This document shows, in pieces, positions 20,156 through 47,693 of a stretch of DNA of 49,715 bases; the stretch's first letter is position 1; the number at the start of each line of letters is the position of its first letter. The DNA lies in sequence record MZ501085. One strand, given 5' to 3'. The position numbers and the translations under genes are program-made. The notes below the pieces were generated by a model, which saw nothing but the letters and a program-made list of their open reading frames with translations, did not search any database and was not told the origin of the DNA. This stretch comes from Escherichia phage JohannLBurckhardt.

Positions 20156-20199
20156 ATTATAGACACCAATCAGGACGGATGTTTAGCAATTCGTGCTAT
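20156..20199 (-). promoter_or_regulatory. palindrome-type promoter element (site m)
   Basis: On - strand: TAGCA-cgaat-TGCTA, 22 nt, TATAAT; TAA stop of upstream gene abuts motif; leader has CAACGAA. Confidence 0.55.
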
Positions 20200-20849
20200 T
20201 AGTTCCATCCGAGGAATTTAGCCATTGGGATCTTAAAGTTTCCGCGCCCGTTAAAGATATCGTTAAAACCTCGCTGATTTCGCTTTATCCACGTTGTCTG
20301 CAATTCCGAGCCAGTCCAGCGCATTAGGTTTCCAGAATATCCGCTAACCACTCCGTCGTCGCTGATTTCACCCACGCACGACTCCCACAGAAAGAATGGG
20401 TTGTAACCAGGGTAAACGCTCGCAATGTTACCCTCAAGAGGCCAGTTTCCGGCAACCTCAAGGAATCCAGTAACGCGAGGCATTGAAGCAGCGCCAACGG
20501 CAGACCAGATCAATTGACCCGAACCGTCGAAAACGTCAAGCACTCCAGATGGAAAGTTTGCGTTTCTCGTTGTCCTGATAACGCGTATTGAGTTGGGGAG
20601 AAATAAGTTATCTCCAGGGAATCCCCAAGCGCCGTTAAAAAGGAATTGCACCCAATGCAAGTATCCATCCTGCTTCCAGTAGTTTTGGTTTAGCGATGCC
20701 AGCGAGCTAACATTTCCAAACGGGGTGTTTAGATTGTAATCGCCAGTGTTTAAGTATGTTGGGGTGTACGACGAATGATAGATCGTGTGTTTCTGATCTG
20801 AATTAATCATCATCGCGCCAGAGTTATTGTATACCTCAAAACCAGGCAT
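20199..20849 (-). CDS. hypothetical protein (Asn/Gly/Tyr-rich), paralog of 20859..21158
   Basis: 216 aa; RBS GGAGGT; contains two copies of the SG(L/V)xxxDG(A/S)G(N/Q)LI module found at the N-terminus of the neighbouring ORF. Confidence 0.6.
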   Translation of the reverse strand: MPGFEVYNNSGAMMINSDQKHTIYHSSYTPTYLNTGDYNLNTPFGNVSSLASLNQNYWKQDGYLHWVQFLFNGAWGFPGDNLFLPNSIRVIRTTRNANFPSGVLDVFDGSGQLIWSAVGAASMPRVTGFLEVAGNWPLEGNIASVYPGYNPFFLWESCVGEISDDGVVSGYSGNLMRWTGSELQTTWIKRNQRGFNDIFNGRGNFKIPMAKFLGWN

Positions 20850-20858
20850 ATTACCTCC

Positions 20859-21158
20859 CTAATTAAATTTATAAACTTCAATATCCATAACAACATCGCT
20901 AAACGGGTTGCTGGTTGGTAGATATATCACATCAACCGCACCGTCCCGCGTAACGCACGCGTAAGAGCTTCCTATGTAGGCGTTAGACCACTTTATAGCG
21001 GCAAACGAGTTGTAGCCGTTTATACCCCCAACGGCAAACGAAACGATCGCGGTTGTTCGAGGGAATACTATTTGCTGGCGATGCACAAAACGAGTGCTGA
21101 AGTCGCCCAGGTCAACAATCAGATTCCCCGCCCCATCCCACGCTTGAAGACCAGACAT
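20859..21158 (-). CDS. hypothetical protein
   Basis: 99 aa; RBS GAGGTGG; first gene of - strand operon transcribed from the AT-rich region. Confidence 0.6.
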   Translation of the reverse strand: MSGLQAWDGAGNLIVDLGDFSTRFVHRQQIVFPRTTAIVSFAVGGINGYNSFAAIKWSNAYIGSSYACVTRDGAVDVIYLPTSNPFSDVVMDIEVYKFN

Positions 21159-21194
21159 AATGCCACCTCACTAGTTTGCTTGTTAAGTGCATTT

Positions 21195-21223
21195 AATATA
21201 CAGGCGTGGCGTAATCATTTCAA
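21195..21223 (-). promoter_or_regulatory. sigma70-like promoter for - strand cluster
   Basis: On - strand TTGAAA - 17 nt - TATATT about 37 nt upstream of ATG 21158. Confidence 0.45.
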
Positions 21224-21343
21224 TAACAAGTGAGAATCCTTGCCGTTATTGTTTTTCTTGTTTCTCGGTGTTCTCTATTGCACCCACCGCAGAATCGCAC
21301 AACGTTTCAGAACAGAAAAAACAAATAAATCATCTATAATATA

Positions 21344-21384
21344 TAATAAAATCAATAGTTTAGTTTATATGTATTTGTATATTG
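21344..21384 (+). repeat. AT-rich conserved block, copy 1 (direct repeat with 40699..40737)
   Basis: TAATAAAATCAATAGTTTA identical 19-mer plus similar flanks in both AT-rich intergenic regions. Confidence 0.7.
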
Positions 21385-21606
21385 TTATTTATTGTTTCCA
21401 CTGTTTCAGTGTTAATTGATGCACTGGCTTGCTTTCGTCTGGATATCTCTATTAGCCATTTGATGTGTGTATTTATATAAACCCCACCGCAAATCCGCGA
21501 ACAATGAAACAAAAAATAACGACGTTTAAAATCATGCACTTAATCGCTGATTTTGTTATCTTGGTTGAAAGATGCGTTTCGAGAACAGAAAAAACAATTG
21601 ATGGTA

Positions 21607-21634
21607 TTGACTAAACGCCACAAATGGCTACAAT
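21607..21634 (+). promoter_or_regulatory. sigma70-like promoter for recombination module
   Basis: TTGACT - 16 nt - TACAAT, about 30 nt upstream of ATG 21665. Confidence 0.55.
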
Positions 21635-21664
21635 GCACGTATACCAACACACAGGAGCGAAAGA

Positions 21665-22723
21665 ATGAGTGAGTTTAAAGTTTTCACTAGCGCAGAAATG
21701 CCAAACAGTGAGTATCACGATCCGAATAGCTGGACGGCTGAGTACACAAGCGGATCGAATCTGGCTGAGGTTTTCCAGTCCTCACCAGCATCCTGGAAAT
21801 TCAAAGAGCGAGACGACAACGCAAAGCCGCTAATTTTCGGCACTCAGTCGCATACAAACTTTGAGAGCAAGGCACTGTTTGAGGCTCAATATCGCAGAGC
21901 GCCAGCGCCGGAGGAGTTCAAGGATCTTATTACCAGTCAAACGGCTCTCGCTGCGAAACTGAAATCTTTCGGCCTGAAAGGTACAAGCGGGAAGCAGTAT
22001 CCAGATCTGATTAAGATGATGGTTGATTGTGGTGAGGATTTGCAGGTTCAATGGCTGATTGAAATGATCGCAGAATCAGAAGCGCGTGCTGCTGGAGTCG
22101 AGCTTGTAAACGCAAAAGATTATGACGCTTGTGTAGCCATGCGCCAGGTTCTTGAGTCGATACCGGAGCATAACGCGTGCATGAACAGCCCAACCGCGCA
22201 GCGCGAGCTTTCGATTTTTGGCGTTATCAACGGCGTCAAGGTAAAAGTCAGACTGGATCACATTGACGAATGCGAAAACGTAGAGTTTACGCTAATCACT
22301 GGATATGACGACAAAGGACAACCAATTTGCGAAGACGTTGTTTATCCTGAGGCTATTGTGATCACGGACTACAAAACCACAATGAGTGCCAACCCCCTCG
22401 AATTTGAGCGCCTGGCATTCAATCACGGCTACTATTTAAAAATGGCCTTGCAGCATGATTTATTCCGCAAGGCTTACCCGAACGAAACGCGCCCCATAGT
22501 GGTTCGACTGCTGGCGCAGGAGAAGAAAAAGCCTTACTTGCCGCTGGCGTACCGCATGAACAGCGAGCAACTCAAGATCGGGCGCATTCAGTACATGAGC
22601 GTGATCAATCAGTTTGCAATGTGCCAGGCGCATAACATCTGGCCTTCATACGCAAACGGAGCGCCGGAGGTTTCACTGACCACTCCTGATTGGGTGAGAC
22701 GCCAGTACAAAGAATTTCTGTAA
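21665..22723 (+). CDS. PD-(D/E)XK recombination exonuclease (RecB/Cas4/YqaJ-like)
   Basis: 352 aa; D..(ITDYK) nuclease motif order; first gene of module that also has Erf and SSB. Confidence 0.6.
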   Translation: MSEFKVFTSAEMPNSEYHDPNSWTAEYTSGSNLAEVFQSSPASWKFKERDDNAKPLIFGTQSHTNFESKALFEAQYRRAPAPEEFKDLITSQTALAAKLKSFGLKGTSGKQYPDLIKMMVDCGEDLQVQWLIEMIAESEARAAGVELVNAKDYDACVAMRQVLESIPEHNACMNSPTAQRELSIFGVINGVKVKVRLDHIDECENVEFTLITGYDDKGQPICEDVVYPEAIVITDYKTTMSANPLEFERLAFNHGYYLKMALQHDLFRKAYPNETRPIVVRLLAQEKKKPYLPLAYRMNSEQLKIGRIQYMSVINQFAMCQAHNIWPSYANGAPEVSLTTPDWVRRQYKEFL

Positions 22724-22724
22724 A

Positions 22725-22739
22725 CAGCACAAATAGCTA
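22725..22739 (+). promoter_or_regulatory. degenerate palindrome copy CAGCA-caaat-AGCTA
   Basis: Directly after the exonuclease TAA stop, 25 nt before next ATG; no -10 at the canonical spacing. Confidence 0.3.
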
Positions 22740-22764
22740 AACAAGTGAAAATGGAGGTGTTATA

Positions 22765-23094
22765 ATGCCTCCATCAAGTCAACAAAGAGAGGATATCAAA
22801 ATGGAAAACATCACCAATGAAGAAATGATTAGCGCGGTATGTGAAGCTCATATGCGTATGTTTGTACACCGCGTCACTTTCGCAATGAAGGACTTTGTTA
22901 AGCCTCTTAATCCGGCAGACGGCGAAGAAGAAATGAAATACATCCGTGATGTGATGGAGGCGGTTGACAACGTTGTGGCGACTGCGCTGATGGTCAAAGA
23001 GGATCCAGAAGCAATCAAGATGATGAAGGAATCCACCGACAAGCTGATCAATCAGCTTATCGAGATCCATAACGGCGGCGAAGTTAAGCACTAA
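22765..23094 (+). CDS. hypothetical protein
   Basis: 109 aa; RBS GGAGG 7 nt upstream (alternative start 22801). Confidence 0.5.
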   Translation: MPPSSQQREDIKMENITNEEMISAVCEAHMRMFVHRVTFAMKDFVKPLNPADGEEEMKYIRDVMEAVDNVVATALMVKEDPEAIKMMKESTDKLINQLIEIHNGGEVKH

Positions 23095-23134
23095 TTAATA
23101 ACAGGCGGCGAGAGCCGCCTTTAAGGAGAAAGAA

Positions 23135-23788
23135 ATGAAGTTATCCGAGAAATTTGACGAGATTTTGCCAGCACTGCACAAAGCGCGAAGCCAGTTTGTT
23201 AAGGTAAAGAAAGATCGCCAAAACACACACCTAAAAAACAAATACGCCACCCTTGATAGCGTTCTTGACGCAATCACGCCAGCGCTTACTGATAATTCTC
23301 TAATGGTCATGCAGGACATGATCGAGAACGAGTTGGGAGGGAAAATTAAGGTTGAAACAACCGTCATGCATGTTTCCGGTCAGTGGGTGAAATTCTACGT
23401 GGAAATACCAATCGTTAAGAACGATCCGCAAGGCGTAGGATCCGCGTTCACATACGCACGACGCTACGCGCTCGCAGCCGCTTTCGGTTTGAGCCAGGCA
23501 GACGACGACGCGCAAATCGCTGTTAAATCTGCGCAGGATTGGAAGCGCGATATTGAAAAATGCTATAACGTTGACGACCTGCAAAAAGTCCTTAAAGCCG
23601 CATGGCAATCATGCGACGCAGCAAGCAAGCAGATCGTAAAAGAACATTATGAGCGACGCAAAGCAGAGATTGAGATCGGAAGCGCTCGCGGGTTTAGCGC
23701 CGCCACTCCAAAGCAAAACCTTGCCCCAAAGGTTGACGAGCCGCAAAATCAAGCTGTAGAATCTCAGCCAATCACCAGTTTTGAATGA
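23135..23788 (+). CDS. Erf-like single-strand annealing protein
   Basis: 217 aa; [18 protein letters not shown] segment typical of Erf family; strong RBS AAGGAGAAAG. Confidence 0.7.
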
Positions 23789-23830
23789 TAACTCGGGGCG
23801 CTAGCCGCCCCAATTTTACAGGAGAAAGCA

Positions 23831-24253: not shown

Positions 24254-24283
24254 AAAGAAACCCCGCGATTGCGGGGTTTTTTG
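24252..24283. terminator. bidirectional rho-independent terminator
   Basis: A tract, CCCCGC-gatt-GCGGGG, T tract; shared by ssb (+) and the tail fibre gene (-). Confidence 0.85.
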
Positions 24284-26767: not shown

Positions 26768-26784
26768 ATGTAAACTCTCCTAAA

Positions 26785-27841: not shown

Positions 27842-27880
27842 AAAAAAATCGCGTAGCCGGATGATACCAGATACGCGATC
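27842..27880 (-). terminator. terminator hairpin overlapping a degenerate motif-promoter
   Basis: On - strand ATCGCGTA...TACGCGAT stem with TATCAT in loop, then 7 T; preceded by CAGCA-caaat-AGCTA. Confidence 0.55.
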
Positions 27881-27886
27881 TTTGAT

Positions 27887-28327
27887 TTAGCTATTTGTGC
27901 TGTTTATGAAGTCCGACTCTTTCACCACGCGAAGCATTTCGTATCGGTCGCATTTCGTCGTTAACGCCTTGCCGTTTGAGTCGAATCGCAAATCTGGACG
28001 GCAGAATGAAGAACGATAGCCCTTGCAGCCGTTTCGCTTATAGTCGGCGTGAACCTTTTCGGCTCCAGAAACGGAAATCATTCCGCGCTTGCGCCACTGC
28101 TGTATAACCTGGTGAGTAACCTTTAAGCGCCTTGTCATTTCTGCCTGAGATCCGTAATATTCGCAAACGGCATCCAGGCGAGCACGCAATCCGGCTTTGA
28201 CTTCATCCTTTAGAACGTAGTAGCCTGTTTTGCGCTTGCGCTTTTTCTTGTCTTTACCGCGCTTTACACCGTTGTTGCCATTGATTGTGCGCTTGTCAAT
28301 TTCGCCAGTTGATGCAGCAATTTTCAT
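27887..28327 (-). CDS. HTH DNA-binding protein (Cro/YdaS-like), putative transcriptional regulator
   Basis: 146 aa from ATG 28327 (RBS GGAGGT); basic N-terminus, GSQAEMTRRLKVTHQVIQQWRKRG HTH-like segment. Confidence 0.5.
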   Translation of the reverse strand: MKIAASTGEIDKRTINGNNGVKRGKDKKKRKRKTGYYVLKDEVKAGLRARLDAVCEYYGSQAEMTRRLKVTHQVIQQWRKRGMISVSGAEKVHADYKRNGCKGYRSSFCRPDLRFDSNGKALTTKCDRYEMLRVVKESDFINSTNS

Positions 28328-28340
28328 ATTAAACCTCCGA

Positions 28341-28383
28341 TAGCACTTTTTGCTAAAAACACTCAAAACGTATGCGCTATTAT
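28341..28383 (+). promoter_or_regulatory. palindrome-type promoter element (site c)
   Basis: TAGCA-ctttt-TGCTA, 22 nt, TATTAT; 33 nt upstream of helicase ATG; divergent from HTH gene. Confidence 0.6.
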
Positions 28384-28415
28384 ACATTCAATCGGTTAAC
28401 GAATAAAGGTTAAAA

Positions 28416-30416: not shown

Positions 30417-30418
30417 AT

Positions 30419-30835
30419 ATGGTTACTGACAAAGGCGATTATCTGGAATATTACGAGCGGGATCCGAGCGATACGCGCAAGGAAGATTCTCACCAGGTTG
30501 ATTGTGTGGCGTGGTTGCGCCACCATCACCAACACTTACTTTTTTGGCACACTGTAAACGAGGGTAGCAAGACGATCACCGCCGCGCTGCGTGACGAACA
30601 GGCCGGATTGCTAAAGGGCGTATCCGACTTTGTTATCCTGATTGGTTCAGGTAAATATCCGTTTGCAGCCATAGAGCTAAAGCAAGCCAACAAATCAGGA
30701 AAGCGTAAGGCTTCACCAGTCAGCGACAACCAGAAAGCTTTCTTGAGTAGGGTTAGACACTTGGGAGGTTTCGCAGCCGTTTGCTATGGCGTGAAGCAAT
30801 TCAAGCTTGCAATTGCAGATCTCTTGCAGGAATAG
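30419..30835 (+). CDS. VRR-NUC domain nuclease
   Basis: 138 aa from ATG 30419; D-x(n)-E-x-K arrangement (GVSDFVIL...AIELKQ). Confidence 0.55.
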   Translation: MVTDKGDYLEYYERDPSDTRKEDSHQVDCVAWLRHHHQHLLFWHTVNEGSKTITAALRDEQAGLLKGVSDFVILIGSGKYPFAAIELKQANKSGKRKASPVSDNQKAFLSRVRHLGGFAAVCYGVKQFKLAIADLLQE

Positions 30836-30875
30836 CACTTTTTGCTAAAACACGCTCCTGCTGGTTTTGTATTAT
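30833..30875 (+). promoter_or_regulatory. palindrome-type promoter element (site d)
   Basis: TAG stop of VRR-NUC gene is first triplet of TAGCA-ctttt-TGCTA; 22 nt; TATTAT. Confidence 0.6.
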
Positions 30876-30925
30876 TGCATCAAGAAACGCAGCTAAATTC
30901 TACATGATGAAATAAGGATCGAAAA

Positions 30926-32030: not shown

Positions 32031-32031
32031 A

Positions 32032-32074
32032 TAGCACGAATTGCTAAAACTGCCCGGCGAAAGTCGGGCATAAT
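32032..32074 (+). promoter_or_regulatory. palindrome-type promoter element (site e)
   Basis: TAGCA-cgaat-TGCTA, 22 nt, CATAAT; hairpin TGCCCG/CGGGCA; leader CCAACGAAAAC. Confidence 0.6.
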
Positions 32075-32106: not shown

Positions 32107-32298
32107 ATGAAAATCTACAGCAAACGCTCTTTCAAAATCGCGCAGGAATTAGCACGCGAGGCGGTAGCCGGAGGCAGCAAAGAGGGCTACGGTTTCGATT
32201 GGGATATAGCAATGATTTACTTGCAGGTGGCGACAGGTCACGCTCCAATCGAGAAAATCGAGCAGGTTGACAAGGTTATTGAGGAGGGATTGATTTAA
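32107..32298 (+). CDS. hypothetical protein
   Basis: 63 aa; RBS; follows site e. Confidence 0.5.
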   Translation: MKIYSKRSFKIAQELAREAVAGGSKEGYGFDWDIAMIYLQVATGHAPIEKIEQVDKVIEEGLI

Positions 32299-32546
32299 TG
32301 AAGGTTGAGCAAGGCCGCGAGGCCGTTTGGAATCACGCCAAAGAAACCGGAATGGCAGACGATATAGCACGAATTGCTAAAATCTTTGATCTGGCTGATG
32401 TTAGTATTATCAGCAACGGGAAAATGACTTACTTACACGAGAGGCCACGCAAAATGCACCGCGTGCCAGCAATCCCGACAAAAATTGACTTCAAAGAAGC
32501 AATGGCAAAAATCAGAGAGCCGAAAAAGTATTATAAAGGAGAATAG
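32298..32546 (+). CDS. hypothetical protein (contains an internal palindrome copy)
   Basis: 82 aa; ATG overlaps upstream TAA; motif site f lies in-frame inside this ORF. Confidence 0.45.
   Translation: MKVEQGREAVWNHAKETGMADDIARIAKIFDLADVSIISNGKMTYLHERPRKMHRVPAIPTKIDFKEAMAKIREPKKYYKGE
32365..32407 (+). promoter_or_regulatory. intragenic palindrome-type element (site f)
   Basis: TAGCA-cgaat-TGCTA, 22 nt, TAGTAT (TATTAT at 25 nt). Confidence 0.4.
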
Positions 32547-32640: not shown

Positions 32641-33759
32641 ATGATTCAGAAAATGACAGATCAGCAGTTTAAAGACGCGCGAGCGGAGGGCAAAACCTAC
32701 AAGCAGATCGCGGACGAGTTCGGCTTGAATGTTCGCACCGTTGAGCGCCGCGCGGCACGCCTTGCTCGCCAGGGTGAGACTGACACGAAAGGCGCACCAG
32801 GTTTTGCGGTTGTTCGTGAGTCAGTCCTGACCCGCGCAAACGGCGAAGAAGTGATGCGCTGGACTATCACCAACAAAGATAAAGAGCAGTTGGAGGCGCT
32901 CATGCAAGCCGCGATGGACGCATTCGCTGAGGAAGTGCCGCGCCTGGAGCCTCAGCAGGAAAGCCGAAAGGACTACAGCGAAAGCCTGGCGCTATACCCT
33001 ATTTTTGACATGCACATTGGCGCAATGGCTCACAAGCATGAATGTGGTGAGAATTGGGATACAGCAACAGCCGAGAAAGTCATGAATGACTTCTTTGATT
33101 ATGCGGTTGAGTGTGCGCCAAATAGCGAGAAAGCCGTGCTCCTGATTGGTGGAGACATGCTTCACAGTGACGGCCTTGAGGCTGTAACACCTGCCAGCGG
33201 TCACGTTCTGGATCAGGATAGCCGATACGCCAAACTTGTTTATGTCGCAATCCGAGCAACTCGCCGCGCTATCTCATTGATGTTGACCAAGCACAAAGAG
33301 GTTGAAATTCAGGTGATCGAGGGCAATCATGACCAATCAGGCATGATCTGGCTACGCGCAGCAATGGCGGCGGCATACGAGGACGAGCCGCGCGTGATGG
33401 TTGATGTTTCTCCTCGCGTAGTGCATCACACGCAGTATGGTAAAACATTCCTCGCTTATCATCACGGTCACACCGTGCGCAAGCCGGAAACGTTATTGAT
33501 GATGTGCGCGGCAGATTGGCGCGAGGATTTTGGCAAATCAAAATCAATGTATGCTCATGTAGGCCATTGGCATCACCAGACCGTAACAGAAACCAGCCTG
33601 GGGATTGTTGAAGTTCATAGCACAATGGCGGCCAAAGATGCGTATGCGGCACGCGGCGGCTGGCGCTCTCGTCGTCGCGCTGCGGTTATCATCTACGATA
33701 AAGAGCACGGAGAGATCGGGCGCTTTATGTTCTACCCTGAAATGATGGAGTCAAAATAA
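32641..33759 (+). CDS. calcineurin-like metallophosphoesterase with N-terminal HTH domain
   Basis: 372 aa; DMH...GGDMLHSD...GNHDQ phosphoesterase motifs; N-terminal KTYKQIADEFGLNVRTVERR HTH-like. Confidence 0.65.
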   Translation: MIQKMTDQQFKDARAEGKTYKQIADEFGLNVRTVERRAARLARQGETDTKGAPGFAVVRESVLTRANGEEVMRWTITNKDKEQLEALMQAAMDAFAEEVPRLEPQQESRKDYSESLALYPIFDMHIGAMAHKHECGENWDTATAEKVMNDFFDYAVECAPNSEKAVLLIGGDMLHSDGLEAVTPASGHVLDQDSRYAKLVYVAIRATRRAISLMLTKHKEVEIQVIEGNHDQSGMIWLRAAMAAAYEDEPRVMVDVSPRVVHHTQYGKTFLAYHHGHTVRKPETLLMMCAADWREDFGKSKSMYAHVGHWHHQTVTETSLGIVEVHSTMAAKDAYAARGGWRSRRRAAVIIYDKEHGEIGRFMFYPEMMESK

Positions 33760-34769: not shown

Positions 34770-35161
34770 AACGATTAGCTTTAGCGGTACTGGTTGCCGC
34801 CTCTCTTTCTGGTTGTTCGGCGTCAAGCGCCCTGAGTGGTTTAGTCGGCAGCAAGCCGGAAATTACAGCACAGGCAGGAGCCGAAAACGTAAAGCAAACA
34901 GTAGGCGTAACGGCAAAGAATGACGAGAGCAGCAAGCAGGAAAACACGATCAAGGATTCGCAGGTTGGCAAGGTTGACTCCTCCAACAAAAAGAAGGTGA
35001 GCACTTCAAGCATCCAGGCTGAGACAATCACAGCCGACAAGATCGAGATCAGAAACAGCGAGAGCGATTTGTATGTGATATTCTTTGCGCTGGCTTGCTT
35101 ATTTGTTGCTGGCTTTGCCGCTGGCGTTTTTTGGAAGGGCAGAAAAAACAAAGGGGCATAA
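34766..35161 (+). CDS. unimolecular spanin (u-spanin)
   Basis: 131 aa; lipoprotein signal with lipobox LSGC at N-terminus and C-terminal TMD ([22 protein letters not shown]). Confidence 0.75.
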
Positions 35162-35173
35162 TGCCCCTTTTTT
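35141..35173. terminator. bidirectional rho-independent terminator
   Basis: A tract, GGGGC-ataat-GCCCC, T tract; between convergent spanin and - strand genes. Confidence 0.85.
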
Positions 35174-37295: not shown

Positions 37296-37338
37296 ATTAT
37301 AGGTCAACCATCTTACAGCCTTTTAGCAATTCGTGCTA
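37296..37338 (-). promoter_or_regulatory. palindrome-type promoter element (site n)
   Basis: On - strand TAGCA-cgaat-TGCTA, 22 nt, TATAAT inside GGTTGACC/GGTCAACC inverted repeat; TAG is stop of upstream gene. Confidence 0.6.
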
Positions 37339-37581
37339 TTTTAAACGTTCAACTTTTGCTAATAATCTTCCGTCAACTATTGAGTGACACTCAAGCGTTT
37401 CAGGATCAAAATCAAGCGACTTATGGAAGGTGTGACCAATCAGCCACTTGTCGCCACGGTCACGTATAAGATAAACCTCCTCACCCTCAACCAGGCTTGA
37501 TGTTGTTCCGTACACGACGCGGAACCTGTTTTTGCGCATCGCGGCTGGTACGTGCTTTTGGTAGTCAACGCCTGTGATCAT
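37336..37581 (-). CDS. hypothetical protein
   Basis: 81 aa; ATGA overlap with upstream gene. Confidence 0.5.
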   Translation of the reverse strand: MITGVDYQKHVPAAMRKNRFRVVYGTTSSLVEGEEVYLIRDRGDKWLIGHTFHKSLDFDPETLECHSIVDGRLLAKVERLK

Positions 37582-37943: not shown

Positions 37944-37972
37944 GATTTGCTCCTTTCGTTTGATGTGGTTGC

Positions 37973-38015
37973 ATAATAGCGGATCTTATCGACCCGCTTT
38001 TAACAAAAAGTGCTA
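37973..38015 (-). promoter_or_regulatory. palindrome-type promoter element (site o)
   Basis: On - strand TAGCA-ctttt-TGTTA, 22 nt, TATTAT in AGCGG/CCGCT hairpin; leader CAAACGAAAGGAG. Confidence 0.6.
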
Positions 38016-38726
38016 TTTTGAGTTAGCCAGCCATACAGCAATAGCCAGGCCGCGAGGAGTGAGCGAGCGAATCAGTTTTGTTCGCGCTGATTTACCGCCT
38101 AATTTCTTCCAGCCTGGATTGTCATTCCCAACCGGATACACTGGCAAAGCCTCAGGCATCACAAAGCCGTTACCAGTCCAAAGGCAAGTTTGCTTATTGT
38201 AAGCGTCACTCGCTGGGATGATATCAGGAAAGGCAGGGTGAGCTTCATCCTTGATATGGATGTAGCCGCCATAGTCGCACGGATGGAATTTATGATCCGG
38301 CTTGCGCCATAGCGTTGACAGCTTGCCTACAGGGTTTTCGATCATGTACGGCACGCCGAAATGATCAGCAATGTCAGCCGCAATCTTGCAGGTGTTTGCC
38401 GCCTCAACCTGGAATTTCGGATTCAACTCAGCTTTGCGCTTCCAGTGGCGAGAGCCGGAGTTAGCCAGGTCTGTGCATGGCGGGAATGCCATAATGAAAT
38501 CAGGCTTGCCGTAAAATTCCATTTGCGCACGGTGGCGGAAATCGCTGTCAATCCATGCGTTAACATATTCGATGTTCGGATGCGTTACGCGCACTGATTG
38601 GTACGATCCGTGATCACCTTTATCGGCATTAAAGCAAATCACTTTGTAACCAGCTTTCGCCCACGGCAGAGCCGCATAGCCGGAGCCGTCGAACATTGAG
38701 AAAACCAGACCTTTGATGTTGTTCAT
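38013..38726 (-). CDS. putative DNA (cytosine-5)-methyltransferase
   Basis: 237 aa; motif order FSMFDGSG (motif I-like), PPCTD (PC motif IV-like), ENP (motif VI-like) with C5-MTase-like spacing; short for the family. Confidence 0.5.
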   Translation of the reverse strand: MNNIKGLVFSMFDGSGYAALPWAKAGYKVICFNADKGDHGSYQSVRVTHPNIEYVNAWIDSDFRHRAQMEFYGKPDFIMAFPPCTDLANSGSRHWKRKAELNPKFQVEAANTCKIAADIADHFGVPYMIENPVGKLSTLWRKPDHKFHPCDYGGYIHIKDEAHPAFPDIIPASDAYNKQTCLWTGNGFVMPEALPVYPVGNDNPGWKKLGGKSARTKLIRSLTPRGLAIAVWLANSK

Positions 38727-39276: not shown

Positions 39277-39319
39277 ACTATAACGGGACGAAGCGCCGGA
39301 GTTTTAACAAAAAGTGCTG
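39277..39319 (-). promoter_or_regulatory. palindrome-type promoter element (site p)
   Basis: On - strand CAGCA-ctttt-TGTTA, 22 nt, TATAGT inside GGCGC/GCGCC inverted repeat; TGA stop of upstream gene abuts motif. Confidence 0.55.
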
Positions 39320-39586
39320 TCAGTTGTAGATAACACTTTTAATCTTCTTGATCTCGTCAACTAGCTCTTGTTCGTCGTGAATCATGGAGGGCGAGCACTC
39401 CCAACAAGCGGAGGGAAGTTTCTTGTTCTTGCCCTTAATCAGAAAGCCGCCCATTAACTCCCAATTGCAGATAAGGCGATCATCACGCATATCGTACAGG
39501 TTGAACAGGTTGCGACGCTCGCCACTAACGTAAATCTTCACCCCATTGTTGCGGCAGAATACGCGCAATTCTTTCGTCGCTCGCAT
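39320..39586 (-). CDS. hypothetical protein
   Basis: 88 aa; coupled. Confidence 0.5.
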   Translation of the reverse strand: MRATKELRVFCRNNGVKIYVSGERRNLFNLYDMRDDRLICNWELMGGFLIKGKNKKLPSACWECSPSMIHDEQELVDEIKKIKSVIYN

Positions 39587-40012: not shown

Positions 40013-40055
40013 ATGATACCGCATCGCATCTGACTGGTTTTAACAAAAAGTGCTA
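40013..40055 (-). promoter_or_regulatory. palindrome-type promoter element (site q)
   Basis: On - strand TAGCA-ctttt-TGTTA, 22 nt, TATCAT; leader CAACAAAACGAAACTGAGGAA. Confidence 0.6.
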
Positions 40056-40334
40056 TCACTTCATCATATGCAGATTGTTAGCGATAAACTTGACAACTTC
40101 ACGCAGTTGCTTTTCGTCAAAGATAGTCGCTGGCAATTCTTCTTTCAAATCCTGGTGCAGATAAACGTTTCCGTGCCAGGCGAGTTTGTCATGCTCGATG
40201 CGATAGCTACACATCCACTCACAATCGTTGTCAGCTTCCCAAATGCACAGAGCGGTGTAGTCGCCCAAATCCTCAACGGTTAACTCAATGCCGCGTTTCT
40301 TTGCCATGTTGAAAGTGGTCTTGCTGATGTTCAT
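40056..40334 (-). CDS. hypothetical protein
   Basis: 92 aa from ATG 40334 (RBS GAGGAAAA). Confidence 0.5.
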   Translation of the reverse strand: MNISKTTFNMAKKRGIELTVEDLGDYTALCIWEADNDCEWMCSYRIEHDKLAWHGNVYLHQDLKEELPATIFDEKQLREVVKFIANNLHMMK

Positions 40335-40365: not shown

Positions 40366-40409
40366 ATTATGACAAATCCTATCCGCTCTTTTTTTAGCAA
40401 AAAGTGCTA
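40366..40409 (-). promoter_or_regulatory. palindrome-type promoter element (site r)
   Basis: On - strand TAGCA-ctttt-TGCTA, 23 nt, CATAAT; leader TTCAACGAAACGAACTGAGGAA. Confidence 0.55.
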
Positions 40410-40424
40410 TTTAATCGGTAGTCA

Positions 40425-40525: not shown

Positions 40526-40698
40526 AATGTGGGAATCAGCATGGCCTGGCGGTGTCGTTTTTGCGCTCTCGAAAACTCCGCCCTGTTATCTTCTGTTTGC
40601 ACTCGTTTCCTCTTGTTACCGAAAGTACGGTGGCGTAGTTTGTTCGTGTTTTTCGCGTAGCAGAAACAAAAAAAACTTTTAATTACCCTATAAACAAC

Positions 40699-40737
40699 TA
40701 ATAAAATCAATAGTTTATTTATATATATTATATTTGT
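40699..40737 (+). repeat. AT-rich conserved block, copy 2 (direct repeat with 21344..21384)
   Basis: TAATAAAATCAATAGTTTA identical 19-mer plus similar flanks. Confidence 0.7.
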
Positions 40738-41482: not shown

Positions 41483-41484
41483 TT

Positions 41485-41745: not shown

Positions 41746-41753
41746 TTGGTAAA

Positions 41754-41796
41754 TAGCACTTTTTGCTAAAACAGCCCCGCGCGAGTGGGGCATAAT
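41754..41796 (+). promoter_or_regulatory. palindrome-type promoter element (site g)
   Basis: TAGCA-ctttt-TGCTA, 22 nt, CATAAT; leader CTCAACGAAACGAATTGAGGAG. Confidence 0.6.
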
Positions 41797-41829
41797 GCAC
41801 TCAACGAAACGAATTGAGGAGACTGCAAA

Positions 41830-42894: not shown

Positions 42895-42955
42895 GCAGTT
42901 GGCACAATGAGCACGTCATGCAATTCTACCGCCAAAGGATAAAGAAAATCCTCAA

Positions 42956-42998
42956 TAGCACGAATTGCTAAAACACCAGATCGGGGTTGCGCTATAGT
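42956..42998 (+). promoter_or_regulatory. palindrome-type promoter element (site h)
   Basis: TAGCA-cgaat-TGCTA, 22 nt, TATAGT inside GGGGT/ACCCC inverted repeat; leader ATCGAAACGAAAC. Confidence 0.6.
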
Positions 42999-43034
42999 AA
43001 CCCCATCGAAACGAAACACGCTGAGGAGCACAAA

Positions 43035-43202: not shown

Positions 43203-43205
43203 TAC

Positions 43206-44401: not shown

Positions 44402-44407
44402 GGACTC

Positions 44408-44617
44408 ATGATCTTGAATGTTGCCTTTGCCAATCCGAGAGGGTGCAATATTTACGGCTTCAAGGTTGGCGCAGCGGTTAACGCCAGGCGCGACGACAAA
44501 GGGAGGCTCATAGTAAAGGCTCCCAAAACTGGAGTTGATATGTGGATAAAGGAGAACGGCGTACGGCTATTTATCCGCTCAATGTCGGGGCAAACGCTAG
44601 CGACTTTCACAAAATAG
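44408..44617 (+). CDS. hypothetical protein
   Basis: 69 aa; stop TAG is first triplet of motif site i. Confidence 0.5.
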   Translation: MILNVAFANPRGCNIYGFKVGAAVNARRDDKGRLIVKAPKTGVDMWIKENGVRLFIRSMSGQTLATFTK

Positions 44618-44657
44618 CACGAATTGCTAAAACGCGCTCCGCCAGGGGCGCTACAAT
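44615..44657 (+). promoter_or_regulatory. palindrome-type promoter element (site i)
   Basis: TAGCA-cgaat-TGCTA, 22 nt, TACAAT; leader resembles that of the 21665 promoter (TACAATGCAC..ATACCAAC). Confidence 0.6.
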
Positions 44658-44689
44658 GCACCCATACCAACCAACGAGAGGAAAGCAAG

Positions 44690-44923
44690 ATGCAAGCAAA
44701 GATTAAAACCATTGGCGGATACACCGGAATGAAAAACGTCAAGCTGCCGCTGACACTAAAGGCGGTTTCCAGTGGTTACGGCACGGTTGATGTGAGCATG
44801 GCGGAACTGATTCACCACGGCTATGATTTTGCAGCAGGTCAGGCAGACGAAATCCCGGACTGCGAACCAAACGCTCAAACACTAACTTTCATCATCGGAT
44901 CAGAGGCGGAGATTGTAGAATGA
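44690..44923 (+). CDS. hypothetical protein
   Basis: 77 aa from ATG 44690 (RBS GAGAGGAAA). Confidence 0.5.
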   Translation: MQAKIKTIGGYTGMKNVKLPLTLKAVSSGYGTVDVSMAELIHHGYDFAAGQADEIPDCEPNAQTLTFIIGSEAEIVE

Positions 44924-45150
44924 AATATCAGATTTTTAAGGCAGTAGACAAGCTGGACGGCGATGTATCACTTTTCGCTTTTGATGAGCAAGAAAACTAC
45001 ACAGTCATTTATCACTCTGACTACATGCTTGGAAGGCTGGTTGAGGAGATTAAATCCGGCAAAGGTTGCCACTGGTCAGCGGATTCAATCAGCTACCCGC
45101 GCCGCAATGATATGGTTAATCCGGTTCTGCTTTGCGAGATTGAAGCATGA
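44920..45150 (+). CDS. hypothetical protein (MK..I family-like)
   Basis: 76 aa; ATGA overlap. Confidence 0.5.
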   Translation: MKYQIFKAVDKLDGDVSLFAFDEQENYTVIYHSDYMLGRLVEEIKSGKGCHWSADSISYPRRNDMVNPVLLCEIEA

Positions 45151-45338
45151 AGTGCATACGGTCAACATACGATATATTCAAGGCTGGTGAAAGTTACCAG
45201 CTAATTGAGAAAGGCCAGGCTGGGCGGTTCACGGTGTACGAATACACCGACGCGCAAGGTTGGGTTTACACGTTCGGACTTGACGAGAACGGCGAGAACG
45301 AAACAGACGGCAATTTCATTAAATTTACAAAGGAGTAA
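45147..45338 (+). CDS. hypothetical protein (MK.IR / AGK.Y family)
   Basis: 63 aa; MKCIRSTYDIFKAGESYQLIE. Confidence 0.5.
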   Translation: MKCIRSTYDIFKAGESYQLIEKGQAGRFTVYEYTDAQGWVYTFGLDENGENETDGNFIKFTKE

Positions 45339-45342
45339 CAAG

Positions 45343-45573
45343 ATGATTGAGATTCTATTCGAGGGCAACTCTAAGCCATTCAACGGCGTACAGATCCACA
45401 AAGACGCAACGCACGCGGTAGCGGGTCGCAATTTCGGTACTTACTTTAAGCTCAATGGGGAATGGTATTTTACTGTTTTCACCTGCCACGCGCTTAAAGC
45501 AACGGTTGCGTCTCATGACTTTGATATCCGCGATCACATAAGAGACGACGCAAAAATCACAGCGCTTAAATAG
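45343..45573 (+). CDS. hypothetical protein
   Basis: 76 aa from ATG 45343 (RBS AAGGAG); stop TAG is first triplet of motif site j. Confidence 0.5.
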   Translation: MIEILFEGNSKPFNGVQIHKDATHAVAGRNFGTYFKLNGEWYFTVFTCHALKATVASHDFDIRDHIRDDAKITALK

Positions 45574-45614
45574 CACTTTTTGCTAAAGACTTTCCGCGAG
45601 GCCATTGATATAGT
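45571..45614 (+). promoter_or_regulatory. palindrome-type promoter element (site j)
   Basis: TAGCA-ctttt-TGCTA, 23 nt, TATAGT inside GAGGCCA/TGGCCTC inverted repeat. Confidence 0.6.
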
Positions 45615-45652
45615 GGCCTCATTGAAAGCAACCACGCAAACAGGAGATAAAA

Positions 45653-45811
45653 ATGCGTAACTTTGAGAAAATCCGCACTAACAAAGACCGTCGCGCCGCT
45701 GGTGAGATTGTGGACTCACACCGTCGCCGCAAGAAAACCCAAAAGCGCGGGAGTGCGGAAAAGCGCATGGATTGGGATCAGCTTCAAACTAACTACAAGG
45801 CAGGTCGATAA
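45653..45811 (+). CDS. small basic (Arg/Lys-rich) protein (52 aa)
   Basis: ATG after CAGGAG; stop TAA overlaps the kinase ATG; the longer track ORF 45663..45905 is in another frame and overlaps the kinase gene. Confidence 0.45.
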   Translation: MRNFEKIRTNKDRRAAGEIVDSHRRRKKTQKRGSAEKRMDWDQLQTNYKAGR

Positions 45812-46380
45812 TGAAAAAGGTTATTATCCTCAACGCGCCGCCAGGTGCTGGCAAAGATACGGTTGGCAACCTGATTTGCAAGCACGCGCCGCAATACATT
45901 GTTAAGCGCTCGTTCAAAGAGCCGATGTTTAAGATAGCAAAAGCCATGCTGGGCGATTATCGTTTCAGCCTGTTTATGCAAGCGTATGACGACAGGGAGC
46001 GGAAGGAAAGAGCACAACCATTCCTGAATGGTAAATCTCCGCGCCAGTTTATGATCTGGATTAGCGAGGACGTGATAAAACCTCAGTTTGGGGATCAGTA
46101 TTTTGGCGCAGTAATGGCTGAGGCAGTGCGCGATAGCCATGCCCCGATTGTCATTACTGACGGCGGTTTCCCCGATGAAGTTAAGCCGCTGGTCAGCGCT
46201 GGCATTCAGGTAAATATTTGCCGCCTACATCGAGACGGCTACACGTTCGCCGGAGATAGCCGAGACTATCTCAACCTTGGGGGCTACCATCACCGAATCG
46301 TGACGCGGGATTATATTATGGTGCATGGTGATCCAATGCACACGGTAGACCAGATTTGCGAGGATATACTAAGTGATTAG
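45811..46380 (+). CDS. P-loop kinase (dNMP kinase / polynucleotide kinase-like)
   Basis: 189 aa; N-terminal Walker A LNAPPGAGKDTVG. Confidence 0.55.
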   Translation: MKKVIILNAPPGAGKDTVGNLICKHAPQYIVKRSFKEPMFKIAKAMLGDYRFSLFMQAYDDRERKERAQPFLNGKSPRQFMIWISEDVIKPQFGDQYFGAVMAEAVRDSHAPIVITDGGFPDEVKPLVSAGIQVNICRLHRDGYTFAGDSRDYLNLGGYHHRIVTRDYIMVHGDPMHTVDQICEDILSD

Positions 46381-46476
46381 CACACCGAACGATCCAAAAG
46401 AGCCGTTTGACTTCCACAAGGCCGCCGTTATCGGCCTTACAATCCTAACTGTCATTTACACTGTACGAGGTATTTT

Positions 46477-46674
46477 ATGGCTGTTAACACACTAAAGCGA
46501 ATTGGCGTTATCATGCTAATTATCGGAGGGTCATTACTAACAGAGCCAGGTTTTGCAAACGCGGCTGGAAGTATGGCGCTGTTAATCGGCGGTCTTATTG
46601 GCGGCTACATGGACGGCGTAAAGGCTGGACGGCGTGAGGCGTTCGGCGGCGAAGATAAAAATCCGATCAAATAG
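46477..46674 (+). CDS. small membrane protein
   Basis: 65 aa; Gly-rich hydrophobic segments; stop TAG is first triplet of site k. Confidence 0.5.
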   Translation: MAVNTLKRIGVIMLIIGGSLLTEPGFANAAGSMALLIGGLIGGYMDGVKAGRREAFGGEDKNPIK

Positions 46675-46714
46675 CACGAATTGCTAAAACTTCCGCGAGG
46701 GCATTTGATAAAGT
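46672..46714 (+). promoter_or_regulatory. palindrome-type promoter element (site k)
   Basis: TAGCA-cgaat-TGCTA, 22 nt, TAAAGT in imperfect inverted repeat. Confidence 0.6.
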
Positions 46715-46755
46715 GTCCTCATTGAAGTAAAGCAACCAATCAAGGAGATAACGAA

Positions 46756-47034
46756 ATGGCTACTATCCGCAAACACCTGGTAAACGCATTCGAGAACGTT
46801 GGCGAGAGCTACGGCTGGGATGATGGACTAAAAACACCGTACACGGCACGCCGTCAAGGTTTCAAAACACTGCGCGAGTGGGCGCGTTGCATGGCGGCTA
46901 ACTACATGCCGGAGAACTGGCAACTCATGCCTGACACTCTGCGCGAAATGATCGAAGAAGCACAGGCGGCGGGTGTGCCACTCACTCAGCATGATTTTGA
47001 CGCGTTCGCAGAGGAGGAGATTTCATGCTGGTGA
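46756..47034 (+). CDS. hypothetical protein
   Basis: 92 aa; RBS AAGGAG. Confidence 0.5.
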   Translation: MATIRKHLVNAFENVGESYGWDDGLKTPYTARRQGFKTLREWARCMAANYMPENWQLMPDTLREMIEEAQAAGVPLTQHDFDAFAEEEISCW

Positions 47035-47219
47035 AAATCCGCACTGATTATGAGGACTCGCCGTGGATAGCGGCGGGTAAGATTTACGAGGCGGTATTGG
47101 TCAAAACAGGCCGCTACGCAGGAATGTATAAGTTTATTGGGGAGTTAGGCTCCCCGTGCTACACAAGGCTTGAGCGTTCAATTCACATCGGCGGGAAAGA
47201 TTGGGAGATTGTAGAATGA
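47025..47219 (+). CDS. hypothetical protein (MK.IR / AGK.Y family)
   Basis: 64 aa; IAAGKIYEA motif. Confidence 0.5.
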   Translation: MLVKIRTDYEDSPWIAAGKIYEAVLVKTGRYAGMYKFIGELGSPCYTRLERSIHIGGKDWEIVE

Positions 47220-47653
47220 AATATTATGTACGCCCTACTGTAGATGGTGAAAACTTTACTGCTGGCAAGCTCTACGAGATCCAGCATGTTTTCGGCGGAG
47301 GTCGCGTTGTAGTGCTCAACGATGCAAAAGAGGAAATCATTGTGCGGTGCGATGGTGTTGTGTCGGCTCGCCTGGATTGGCGCGGGAAGTTTGATCGCGT
47401 GAACATCCCAAGCGCTCAAGAGGCGATGGAGCAAGCGCTCAAAACTGCGGAGTGGACAATTAGCAAGATCGGCTCCATGAACATAAGCGACGGCAAAATC
47501 TACGCAAGCGCATCGCCTCGCAACGAGTACGCCGAAGTGCTGGAACAGCTACGCGAAATTCTGCGCGTGCCAGAGGGCGAGAATATCCTGACTCATGCGA
47601 AAGTTGTTCGCGTGCTGGCTGATGGGTTGATCAACCTCCAGAAAACGAAATAG
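47216..47653 (+). CDS. hypothetical protein (MK.IR / AGK.Y family N-terminus)
   Basis: 145 aa from ATG 47216 (ATGA overlap); FTAGKLYEI motif; stop TAG starts site l. Confidence 0.5.
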   Translation: MKYYVRPTVDGENFTAGKLYEIQHVFGGGRVVVLNDAKEEIIVRCDGVVSARLDWRGKFDRVNIPSAQEAMEQALKTAEWTISKIGSMNISDGKIYASASPRNEYAEVLEQLREILRVPEGENILTHAKVVRVLADGLINLQKTK

Positions 47654-47693
47654 CACTTTTTGCTAAAACTCCGATGGGGTAGGCTGGTATAGT
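47651..47693 (+). promoter_or_regulatory. palindrome-type promoter element (site l)
   Basis: TAGCA-ctttt-TGCTA, 22 nt, TATAGT inside GGGGTA/TACCCC inverted repeat; leader ATCGAAACGAAAC. Confidence 0.6.

Follow-up and report, generated by a model that had tools for sequence, protein, structure and literature searches.

The window, the whole 49,715-nt stretch of Escherichia phage JohannLBurckhardt DNA analysed here (MZ501085), comes from a T1-like phage of the Drexlerviridae with ~95% identity to IsaakIselin. It contains a repeated element, TAGCA-N5-TGCTA, that occurs as 14 exact copies versus 0.04 expected and as 19 copies with at most one mismatch versus 1.67 expected, which confirms the repeat described in an earlier sequence-only reading. 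The predicted promoter modules built on this element, the other box copies and the regulator gene are as follows.

20156..20199 (−), promoter module: box ATAGCACGAATTGCTAAACA at 20180-20199, 18-bp gap, -10 TATAAT at 20156-20161; predicted +1 ~20149, start codon 20124.
22724..22766 (+), module: AAA-centred box ACAGCACAAATAGCTAAACA (marbox matrix score 16.99), 17-bp gap, tgtTATAAT, with the -10 in the loop of hairpin ATGGAGG/CCTCCAT; start codon 22801.
27861..27903 (−), module before the primase gene: box ACAGCACAAATAGCTAAATC, which also encodes the regulator gene's final residues (S-T-N-S-stop), 17-bp gap, tggTATCAT, with the -10 in the loop of hairpin ATCGCGTA/TACGCGAT, then a T-run.
27887..28327 (−), HTH regulator of the T1 gp23 family: conserved in phages, with a box on either side.
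28340..28383 (+), module serving the helicase (gene start 28416), within the 88 bp between the divergent helicase and regulator genes: a − strand TATAAT at 28380-28385 overlaps its -10, which would put the box within the regulator's leader.
30832..30875 (+), module: box ATAGCACTTTTTGCTAAAAC, 18-bp gap, extended -10 ttgTATTAT.
32031..32074 (+), module: spacer filled by a tight GAAA-loop hairpin TGCCCGGCGAAAGTCGGGCA, then CATAATTATTT; terminator-like, with its T-rich tail provided by the -10.
32364..32407 (+), module, an internal promoter in ORF 32298-32546: hairpin GCTGAT/ATCAGC surrounds the -10.
37296..37339 (−), module of a helicase-like gene (start 37267): TATAAT in the loop of the 9-bp hairpin TGGTTGACC/GGTCAACCA.
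37973..38016 (−), module, TTGTTA variant: hairpin 5' of TATTAT.
39277..39320 (−), module: box ACAGCACTTTTTGTTAAAAC; TATAGT in a GGCGCT/AGCGCC loop.
40013..40056 (−), module, TTGTTA variant: -10 TATCAT.
40366..40410 (−), module: 19-bp gap, extended -10 tgtCATAAT.
41753..41796 (+), module: hairpin GCCCCGCGCGAGTGGGGC adjoins CATAAT.
42955..42998 (+), module: TATAGT in a GGGGTT/AACCCC loop.
44614..44657 (+), module: imperfect hairpin, then TACAAT.
45570..45614 (+), module: 19-bp gap, tgaTATAGT in a GAGGCCA/TGGCCTC loop.
46671..46714 (+), module: tgaTAAAGT within imperfect hairpin GAGGGCA/TGTCCTC.
47650..47693 (+), module: 10-bp stem CGATGGGGTA/TACCCCATCG with tggTATAGT in its loop.
2102..2121 (+), exact box at the terL/portal junction: terminator hairpin after the box; no -10 hexamer found 18 bp downstream.
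6347..6366 (−), box copy of TTGTTA type, antisense to capsid genes: no good -10 found at 18 bp.
16189..16208 (+), box copy ACAGCACAAATTGTTAAAAC immediately before the tail-tip gene: no -10 found at 18 bp.

The positions given in the sequence-only reading all hold, with small corrections: the − strand site listed as 20199 starts at 20198, the site at 39319 deviates at two palindrome positions (CAGCAC...TTGTTA), and the copy at 2103, which had been called degenerate, is in fact exact, though without a -10 hexamer at the right distance. All copies point the same way as a downstream gene, as had been proposed, and their placement at cistron boundaries fails only at 32365, which sits within an ORF and has its nearest good start codon 277 nt further downstream. 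In 16 of 18 modules the box starts 72-85 nt before the ATG, with predicted leaders of 22-35 nt, and the common leader sequence (C)AACGAAAC is found at most sites and absent from some. The overlap with stop codons is real, and the earlier figure of nine was too low: the motif's own TAG is the stop of the upstream gene at seven sites (30833, where it ends the VRR-NUC gene, 37338 (−), 38015 (−), 44615, 45571, 46672 and 47651), and a TAA or TGA immediately adjoins the motif at five more (20198 (−), as TAA at 20199-20201, 32032, 39319 (−), 40055 (−) and 40409 (−)).

Spacing was read after aligning the sites on the motif without gaps, which places TAtaaT at a fixed offset. All 16 core copies have a -10-like hexamer downstream of TGCTA, as claimed, at 22 nt in 14 of them and at 23 nt in two (40409 (−) and 45571), and the gap is 21 nt in the AAA-centred copies at 22725 and 27902 (−). 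The reported lack of a -35 hexamer is also upheld, with canonical -35/-10 pairs not enriched in the region (26 versus 23.7 expected, and 17 versus 17.8 expected). Among 103 box sites pooled from six genomes, G stands at -14 in 85 (83%), the TG of an extended -10 is found in 45, and the seventh nucleotide downstream of the hexamer is A in 81, where a CA start site is predicted; the -10 hexamers themselves are near consensus. An upstream element centred near -41 in the absence of a -35 hexamer is class II geometry, and the assignment of these sites to a phage-family-specific promoter class stands. Judged from sequence, the box repeat marks what is predicted to be this T1-like phage's main class of promoter, the transcription start sites of the modules likewise being predicted.

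The conservation check suggested earlier was run, and both element and spacing are kept in T1, TLS, Rtp, KP36 and IsaakIselin and recur in three divergent metagenomic relatives, so that the spacing from box to -10 is conserved across subfamilies; in IsaakIselin the first leftward gene also lies behind a box promoter. The TLS box has already been published as a 21-nt direct repeat, aaATAGCACnnnTTGnTAAAA, with a stoperator, an enhancer site or a UP element as candidate functions, and the available part of that paper reports neither a fixed -10 distance nor a marbox link (PMC11447400).

What is new here is the reading of the 20-mer ATAGCAC-nnn-TTG(C/T)TAAAAC as a putative oriented marbox and not a true dyad. 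The published marbox consensus, gcannwwntgnnaaa (PMC12052159), has 20 matches without mismatch in the window versus 1.1 expected, including 16 of the 16 core sites, and the variation tolerated among the pooled sites parallels marbox degeneracy, with T/C at position 2, A/T at 9-10, G at 13, C/T (65:33) at 14, T/C at 15 and AAA at 16-18; at position 19 the boxes have A where a marbox has Y, a mismatch that counts against the marbox reading. An independent matrix was built from 87 ChIP-seq sites of Salmonella MarA/SoxS/Rob/RamA (PMC10268841 Table 1; consensus GCACTAATTGCTAAA), and the phage 15-mers rank 1st to 14th against these 87 real sites. With the top-quartile score of the real sites as threshold, the matrix finds at least that score 23 times in the window, 0.35 times in shuffles and 0 times in phage lambda, as compared with 22 in IsaakIselin, 20 in T1, 21 in TLS, 14 in Rtp and 16 in KP36. 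In box orientation and in having 18 bp between box and -10, the phage modules exactly match the class II promoter of E. coli K-12 micF, which is laid out as ACAGCACTGAATGTCAAAAC, 18 bp, TAGAAT, 7 nt, +1, the phage layout being ATAGCACGAATTGCTAAAAC, 18 bp, TATAAT, 6 nt, CA. Class II sites are in forward orientation, clustered at -41 and without a -35 hexamer (PMC10268841), and RamA is positioned at ~-41 on micF. The anatomy, its conservation and the agreement with real marboxes and with class II geometry are established here.

The sequence-only reading suggested that the palindrome may need a dimeric factor, for example the HTH protein encoded at 27887-28327 or a host factor; the evidence favours the host option. 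The position-wise degeneracy fits a marbox, which is read by monomeric MarA/SoxS/Rob, and symmetry is not kept across the 103 pooled sites: position 14 varies whereas its mirror, G4, is invariant, A1, C7 and A17-18 are invariant yet asymmetric, and one relative's box, TTGCAAAAC, has a broken dyad and a retained marbox. The dyad does not appear to be what is recognised. We nonetheless regard it as possible, if unlikely, that the Cro-like protein, which has a single HTH, binds the dyad as a dimer at -42, activating through sigma region 4 like lambda cI at PRM or restriction-modification C proteins and repressing its own gene, whose leader holds a box. The half-sites are spaced 10 bp apart in an exact dyad in 14 copies, the protein is family-wide (121 homologues at ≥50% identity), and the divergence of its gene from the helicase promoter, with a box 3' of the − strand TATAAT, is a typical autoregulatory layout. 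The structural model of the protein (pLDDT 85.7) is similar to all-alpha Cro, P22 c2 and C-proteins, which are dimeric dyad binders, but the Foldseek matches are weak (E ~0.09 to 1), and the recognition helix differs among phages with an identical box (THQVIQQ, SNQTVQG, NLKTVWG, TPQAVEE, SIQVVQQ and others). Such a reader would also leave the equality of the box with the best host marboxes unexplained. Because the first leftward gene of IsaakIselin itself has a box promoter, a phage-encoded activator faces a bootstrapping problem, as it does wherever every early arm begins with one.

On balance, we think it fairly probable that these promoters are of the class II marbox type and that a host factor activates them. 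Each copy would be a compact promoter module for host sigma-70 RNA polymerase, starting with the 20-bp box A-TAGCAC-nnn-TTG(C/T)TA-AAAC, often including the upstream gene's stop codon, followed by an 18-bp spacer and an extended -10 (G at -14, often TG, and a TATAAT-like hexamer), and ending with a CA start 7 nt past the hexamer and an A/C-rich leader of 22-35 nt that carries a Shine-Dalgarno sequence. With the box in forward orientation and centred at ~-41, a host activator would bind it and supply the missing -35 contact, as at micF. Most likely, the GC-rich hairpin that lies in the spacer or surrounds the -10 acts in read-through RNA from the upstream gene, as a terminator or 3'-end stabiliser. 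If true, this suggests that the host antibiotic- and stress-response factors MarA/SoxS/Rob turn on phage early genes.

Several considerations bear on this proposal. Rob alone among these host activators is abundant without stress. Unstressed cells contain little MarA or SoxS, and most Rob is sequestered in aggregates (PMC10268841). For a phage whose latent period is very short, this is an awkward dependence. The loci known from classical T1-resistant mutants are fhuA and tonB, rob not being among them, though redundancy of activators could hide a rob effect in such genetics. Host marboxes neither show nor need the perfect 5+5 bp dyad of the 14 copies, and this excess symmetry may reflect a second reader of the box. 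The location of a conserved phage HTH regulator between two boxes is also counted against a host activator.

The near-consensus extended -10 might make box promoters active without any activator, and we give a small probability, below that of the phage HTH protein, to the extended -10 being enough and the box being kept for another reason, whether as a recombination homology patch that shuffles gene cassettes, a stoperator- or UP-like element (options named by the TLS authors, PMC11447400) or a small 3'-end RNA hairpin. The G at -14 and the hexamers fit this, as do the breakpoints of indels that distinguish the window from IsaakIselin, at modules 30833, 38001, 40041/40395 and 44615 and the exchange of GAA...TTGC for TTT...TTGT as a unit between orthologous boxes, which suggests gene conversion; module shuffling, however, agrees with promoter function and is not an alternative to it. 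The TTGCTA form gives a 5-bp RNA stem (-3.7 kcal/mol), but the TTGTTA form folds like shuffles (-1.3 kcal/mol, z -0.69), a patch or hairpin needs neither the fixed 18-bp -10 distance nor marbox-type degeneracy, and a UP element is at odds with the invariant GCAC and TG. Least probable is that the box is bound by a so far unrecognised phage protein whose specificity is marbox-like and that host factors are irrelevant, since, although most early ORFs lack a known function and phage proteins often lack detectable homology, no AraC-like protein was found by Pfam in 53 early and middle ORFs or by probes with MarA/SoxS/Rob, and such a protein would have had to converge on exactly the consensus, degeneracy and geometry of the host sites.

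Among known systems, the T4 MotA middle promoters also replace the -35 hexamer with an activator box containing TGCT, but their box has its centre at -30 and depends on MotA and AsiA, neither of which has a homologue detected by Pfam in the 53 early and middle ORFs, whereas the phage box is at -41; their earlier treatment as an analogy only was correct. PeSL cassettes of T4-type phages (PMC2839356) similarly repeat a promoter and stem-loop at small early ORF boundaries where gene-content differences of close relatives break, though they use a T4 early sigma-70 promoter in place of marbox and extended -10, carry the hairpin after and not within the promoter, and belong to an unrelated family. 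Lambda PRM (cI at OR2, -42) and C-protein promoters share an activator site near -42 overlapping the -35 region and a Cro/cI-fold HTH protein encoded nearby, but their sites are dimer-read dyads, whereas the conserved positions of the phage box are asymmetric and the phage regulator's recognition helix is not conserved. The TLS 21-nt repeats are the same element: they agree in consensus and gene co-orientation, lie ~76 nt from the start codon and fall into the same AAA, TTT and GAA subgroups (PMC11447400). The closest known system is the enterobacterial mar/sox/rob class II marbox promoters (paradigm micF; also lpxC, lpxL and rfaY), which share the asymmetric 20-bp box, its GCAC and AAA separated by 7 bp, the forward orientation, the 18-bp gap to the -10, the lack of a -35 hexamer and the centre near -41. 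The phage boxes differ in lying in a virulent phage at ~18-23 copies per 50 kb, in being all near-optimal whereas host sites are degenerate, in often holding the upstream gene's stop codon, in having a hairpin that fills the spacer or brackets the -10, and in their strongly conserved G at -14 and extra dyad symmetry.

The window is the genome, complete or nearly so, of a T1-like phage (Drexlerviridae). A 5-kb probe gives 94.7% identity to Escherichia phage IsaakIselin (Tempevirinae, Henuseptimavirus); for Henu7, Samwise, and N5822 the identity is about 92%. The repeat claimed in the sequence-only reading is borne out by 14 exact copies of TAGCA-N5-TGCTA in the window against 0.04 expected, and by 19 copies against 1.67 expected if one mismatch is allowed. 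When the 16 core copies of the box, the 20-bp element around this repeat, are aligned without gaps in the orientation TAGCAC-nnn-TTGCTA, a TAtaaT hexamer stands at a constant offset; as previously described, it begins 22 nt after TGCTA at 14 core sites and 23 nt after it at two, and in the AAA-centred copies 22725 and 27902(-) the distance is 21 nt. Eighteen modules, each consisting of box, spacer, -10 hexamer, and predicted start site, are listed in the window, with a gap between box and hexamer of 18 bp at 14 sites, 19 bp at two, and 17 bp at two, and with the box starting 72-85 nt before the start codon in 16 of the 18 (median box-ATG distance, 76 nt). All 18 point the same way as the downstream gene, as had been claimed; the placement at cistron boundaries stands apart from site 32365, which is located within an ORF, and the estimate of about nine overlaps with upstream stop codons was too low, because the motif's TAG serves as the upstream stop in seven cases and a TAA or TGA lies directly against the box in five more.

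The proposed check on relatives shows that all five compared genomes also have good -10 hexamers at precisely 22 nt past TGCTA (window, 13 sites; IsaakIselin, 14; T1, 13; TLS, 15; Rtp, 16; KP36, 13). Among 103 sites pooled from these six genomes, the 18-bp gap between box and -10 is found in 89, G at -14 in 85, and TG in 45, the A2 and T6 of the hexamer are invariant in all 103, and a C-preceded A lies seven nt past the hexamer, forming a predicted CA start, in 81. No -35 hexamer is present, in agreement with the sequence-only reading: the -35 slot has the sequence TAAAAC, and a scan with the sigma-70 consensus is at chance. The interpretation of the modules as promoters of class II type is supported by the fixed spacing, these promoter marks, the absent -35, and a box centre at about -41. 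Canonical -35/-10 pairs show no excess over shuffled sequence, which makes the modules the main promoter class. A few conventional promoters, with A-rich upstream regions, are located in the two divergent control regions rich in AT, for example:

21607-21634: conventional promoter, TTGACT-16-TACAAT

Next to the few conventional sigma-70-like promoters lies a roughly 70-bp AT-rich sequence (AAAAAAC…TAATAAAATCAATAGTTTA…TTTATAT), repeated at 21310-21385 and 40665-40735 in both divergent intergenic control regions; it may represent either an origin or regulatory sequence common to the two.

As such, the repeat is already known from phage TLS, whose 2024 re-annotation describes a 21-nt direct repeat with consensus aaATAGCACnnnTTGnTAAAA in 21 copies, co-oriented with transcription, with start codons about 76 nt downstream, and falling into AAA, TTT, and GAA subgroups (PMC11447400). 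Its authors state that T1, Rtp, and Rogue1 carry similar repeats, report only three sigma-70-like promoters in TLS, and assign no function, naming stoperator, enhancer site, and UP element as possibilities (PMC11447400). The window box has the same consensus, aaATAGCACnnnTTGnTAAAA, the co-orientation, the distance of about 76 nt, and the AAA, TTT, or GAA centre. Literature searches by sequence string and by topic surfaced the TLS paper alone and no later paper giving the repeat a function, nor did they return a paper connecting T1-like phages with marboxes (the binding sites of the host regulators MarA, SoxS, Rob, and RamA) or with MarA, SoxS, or Rob themselves; within the searchable literature, the proposed link of the repeat to class II activation at marboxes is new.

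Sites for MarA, SoxS, and Rob have the consensus AYnGCACnnWnnRYYAAAYn, with which the phage 20-mer ATAGCACGAATTGCTAAAAC agrees. The marbox as given by the Grainger laboratory, gcannwwntgnnaaa (PMC12052159), has 20 zero-mismatch matches in the window against 1.1 expected, including all 16 core sites. Column composition over the pooled sites obeys marbox degeneracy at all specified positions but 19. The variation tolerated over 103 phage sites reproduces that of the marbox:

Bases in the pooled phage sites and the corresponding marbox code
Position 2: phage sites T or C; marbox code Y
Position 10: phage sites A or T; marbox code W
Position 13: phage sites G; marbox code R
Position 14: phage sites C or T (65:33); marbox code Y
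Position 15: phage sites T or C; marbox code Y
Positions 16-18: phage sites AAA; marbox code AAA

A weight matrix derived from 87 Salmonella sites that ChIP-seq assigned to MarA, SoxS, Rob, or RamA (PMC10268841 Table 1) has the consensus GCACTAATTGCTAAA, and the phage 15-mers score 16.4-18.5 bits with it, placing them 1st to 14th among the 87 real sites. Among the phage forms, GCACAAATTGCTAAA has exactly the sequence of the best ChIP site. That sequence is the best single SoxS ChIP site of Salmonella, on plasmid pSLT (P1_0081; PMC10268841 Table 1), and it recurs as the box variants Rtp 8426 and T1 47632. With the threshold set at the top-quartile score of the real ChIP-derived sites, the window contains 23 positions at or above it against 0.35 in shuffles, and the other genomes contain 22 (IsaakIselin), 20 (T1), 21 (TLS), 14 (Rtp), 16 (KP36), and 0 (lambda). 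Further box or marbox matches lie outside the early modules:

1724-1738 (-): marbox match GCACTGATTGACAAA, 17.25 bits, antisense within the large terminase gene, no -10 at 18 bp
2102-2150: exact box at the terL/portal junction, TACAAT only 8 nt on and then a 10-bp terminator hairpin, a layout unlike that of the early modules and kept in IsaakIselin
8155-8171 (+): marbox match GCACGAATGGCTAAA, 16.29 bits, within a structural gene, no -10 at 18 bp

Class II sites of these host regulators cluster at -41 in forward orientation and have no -35 hexamer (PMC10268841); at micF, the paradigm for this class, Rob or SoxS displaces sigma region 4 (PMC10268841), and RamA sits at about -41 (PMC8811837). The phage box likewise lies over the -35 position, with its centre at about -41 and a gap of 17-19 bp (18-19 bp being the distance given for the class), and its GCAC end is distal and its AAA end beside the core promoter, as in micF. 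In sequence, orientation, placement, and possession of a -10 without a -35, the predicted sites have the features of class II marbox promoters. The mechanism we consider most likely, and moderately probable, is activation in class II fashion by host MarA/SoxS/Rob-type proteins, which would bind these near-optimal marboxes and activate the phage promoters. Activation by a host factor would also raise no bootstrapping problem, since in IsaakIselin a box promoter is present even at the first leftward gene. A caveat is that unstressed cells contain little MarA or SoxS and their Rob is for the most part sequestered (PMC10268841), and the extended -10 alone, with no activator, could give substantial activity.

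The sequence-only reading suggested as one possible binder the phage HTH protein encoded at 27887-28327 (-), a conserved regulator of the T1 gp23 family with 121 homologues. Its predicted model, a confident one (pLDDT 85.7), combines a basic N-terminal arm and a small C-terminal domain with a single HTH that resembles all-alpha Cro, P22 c2, and C-proteins, which led us to reject a hidden double-HTH protein on the strength of the model. The N-terminal arm (DKRxxNGNNG) and C-terminal domain are invariant; the recognition helix is highly variable among T1, TLS, Rtp, KP36, the window, and metagenomic relatives with the same box, so these box-sharing phages do not display the conserved helix that would be expected with a conserved operator of Cro/cI type, and the candidacy is weakened. 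What remains in its favour is that its gene lies between two boxes, one in its own leader, and it may therefore act as a repressor or modulator. The last codons of the regulator are supplied by the primase-promoter box (27884-27903 (-), AGC ACA AAT AGC TAA, encoding S-T-N-S-stop), and in the homologue alignment the tail D-S-T-D-C-stop of long TLS-type homologues is likewise encoded by the box, so the DNA element dictates a conserved protein tail.

The accompanying view of the box as a palindrome bound by a dimer is not favoured, given this variable helix and the unequal conservation of the half-sites. The 5+5 bp dyad is real, yet it does not appear to behave as the recognized feature: G4 is invariant whereas its mirror C14 is C in 65 and T in 33 pooled sites, invariant A1, C7, A17, and A18 have no symmetric partners, and C7/T11 and A1/A17 are non-complementary invariants, so that the equal conservation of both half-sites typical of Cro/cI-type operators is not seen in the pooled set. 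A divergent metagenomic relative carries TTGCAAAAC, a TTGCAA variant that breaks the dyad and is frequent among natural marboxes. Because part of the marbox consensus is self-complementary (YnGCA ... nRYYA), an optimal box is nearly a dyad even if symmetry is not selected for.

Several other explanations were rejected. T4 middle promoters have a MotA box centred at -30 and depend on phage-encoded MotA and AsiA; a promoter of this type is rejected by the box position (about -41) and by the lack of MotA or AsiA families among 53 early and middle ORFs, and the MotA analogy is rejected with it. A phage-encoded MarA-like protein is rejected since Pfam found no AraC-type HTH among the 53 ORFs, and MarA/SoxS/Rob queries recovered nothing below E ~0.5 in the window by tblastn and a small HMM. 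An UP element is rejected because invariant GCAC and TG do not suit one, TTGCTA as a -35 hexamer is rejected because a 22-bp spacer is far outside 16-19 bp, and an RNA hairpin formed by the box is weak (-3.7 kcal/mol), with the common TTGTTA form no better than shuffles. A further HTH was observed in a family-wide protein:

32641-33759 (+): N-terminal sigma-70 region-4-like HTH (Pfam E 1e-5, just below the curated cut-off), with R32, V34, E35, and R37 invariant

This protein is annotated as 'DNA repair exonuclease' in relatives and has, by eye, putative GDxxH, GNHD, and GHxH motifs, which we take to be of Mre11/SbcD phosphoesterase type; the genome is rich in hairpin-forming repeats.

Of the 103 modules, 55 have a perfect stem of at least 6 bp between the box and +8, compared with 5% of shuffles. 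The -10 hexamer lies in the loop in 36 modules and is overlapped by an arm in 19; in 14 the spacer is taken up by a tight hairpin, and the T-rich hexamer behind it resembles the tail of a terminator. The stem sequences vary from module to module with pairing preserved, and several of these hairpins are annotated as terminators in the T1 and KP36 records. Since the module's own transcript lacks the hairpin, we infer that the hairpins would act in RNA reading through from the upstream gene. Strong bidirectional terminator hairpins also stand at the two convergent gene junctions (24255-24282 and 35150-35170). Four of five early-region breakpoints between the window and IsaakIselin, a single genome pair, are at modules, and the modules may be comparable to PeSL-like mobile cassettes, which carry a promoter and stem-loop at ORF boundaries. 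Gene-content differences that start or end at modules are:

30852-30923: difference from IsaakIselin
37946-37973: difference from IsaakIselin
40056-40325: difference from IsaakIselin
44692-44919: difference from IsaakIselin

In orthologous boxes, GAA...TTGC is exchanged for TTT...TTGT as a unit, and together with the breakpoints this suggests recombination or gene conversion between modules, with cassette shuffling.

T1-like phages are frequent laboratory contaminants and therapy candidates, and the class II marbox reading of their repeat is concrete and cheap to test. We hold only tentatively the wider possibility that virulent Drexlerviridae hand nearly all early and middle transcription to host MarA/SoxS/Rob (RamA), with development tuned by stress and the regulators titrated by the boxes. 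If this were true, bile salts, salicylate, oxidants, and antibiotics would tune phage development, and the regulators would be soaked up by the optimal boxes, about 20 per genome and more as the genome replicates, which would blunt the host efflux and multidrug-resistance response during infection. If the marbox reading itself holds, phage growth would be tied to the regulators of intrinsic antibiotic resistance (AcrAB-TolC, micF/OmpF), with a bearing on phage-antibiotic combinations and on phages with TolC as receptor, and the modules would be small, transferable promoter parts that respond to MarA, SoxS, and Rob.

The comparator for the modules is the E. coli K-12 micF promoter, in which the box ACAGCACTGAATGTCAAAAC is followed by 18 bp, the hexamer TAGAAT, and 7 nt to the annotated 5' end. 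The phage box is identical to the micF box at 14 of 20 positions and to the mar box at 15 of 20, and the micF promoter and the phage modules are alike in orientation and in a gap of 18 bp.
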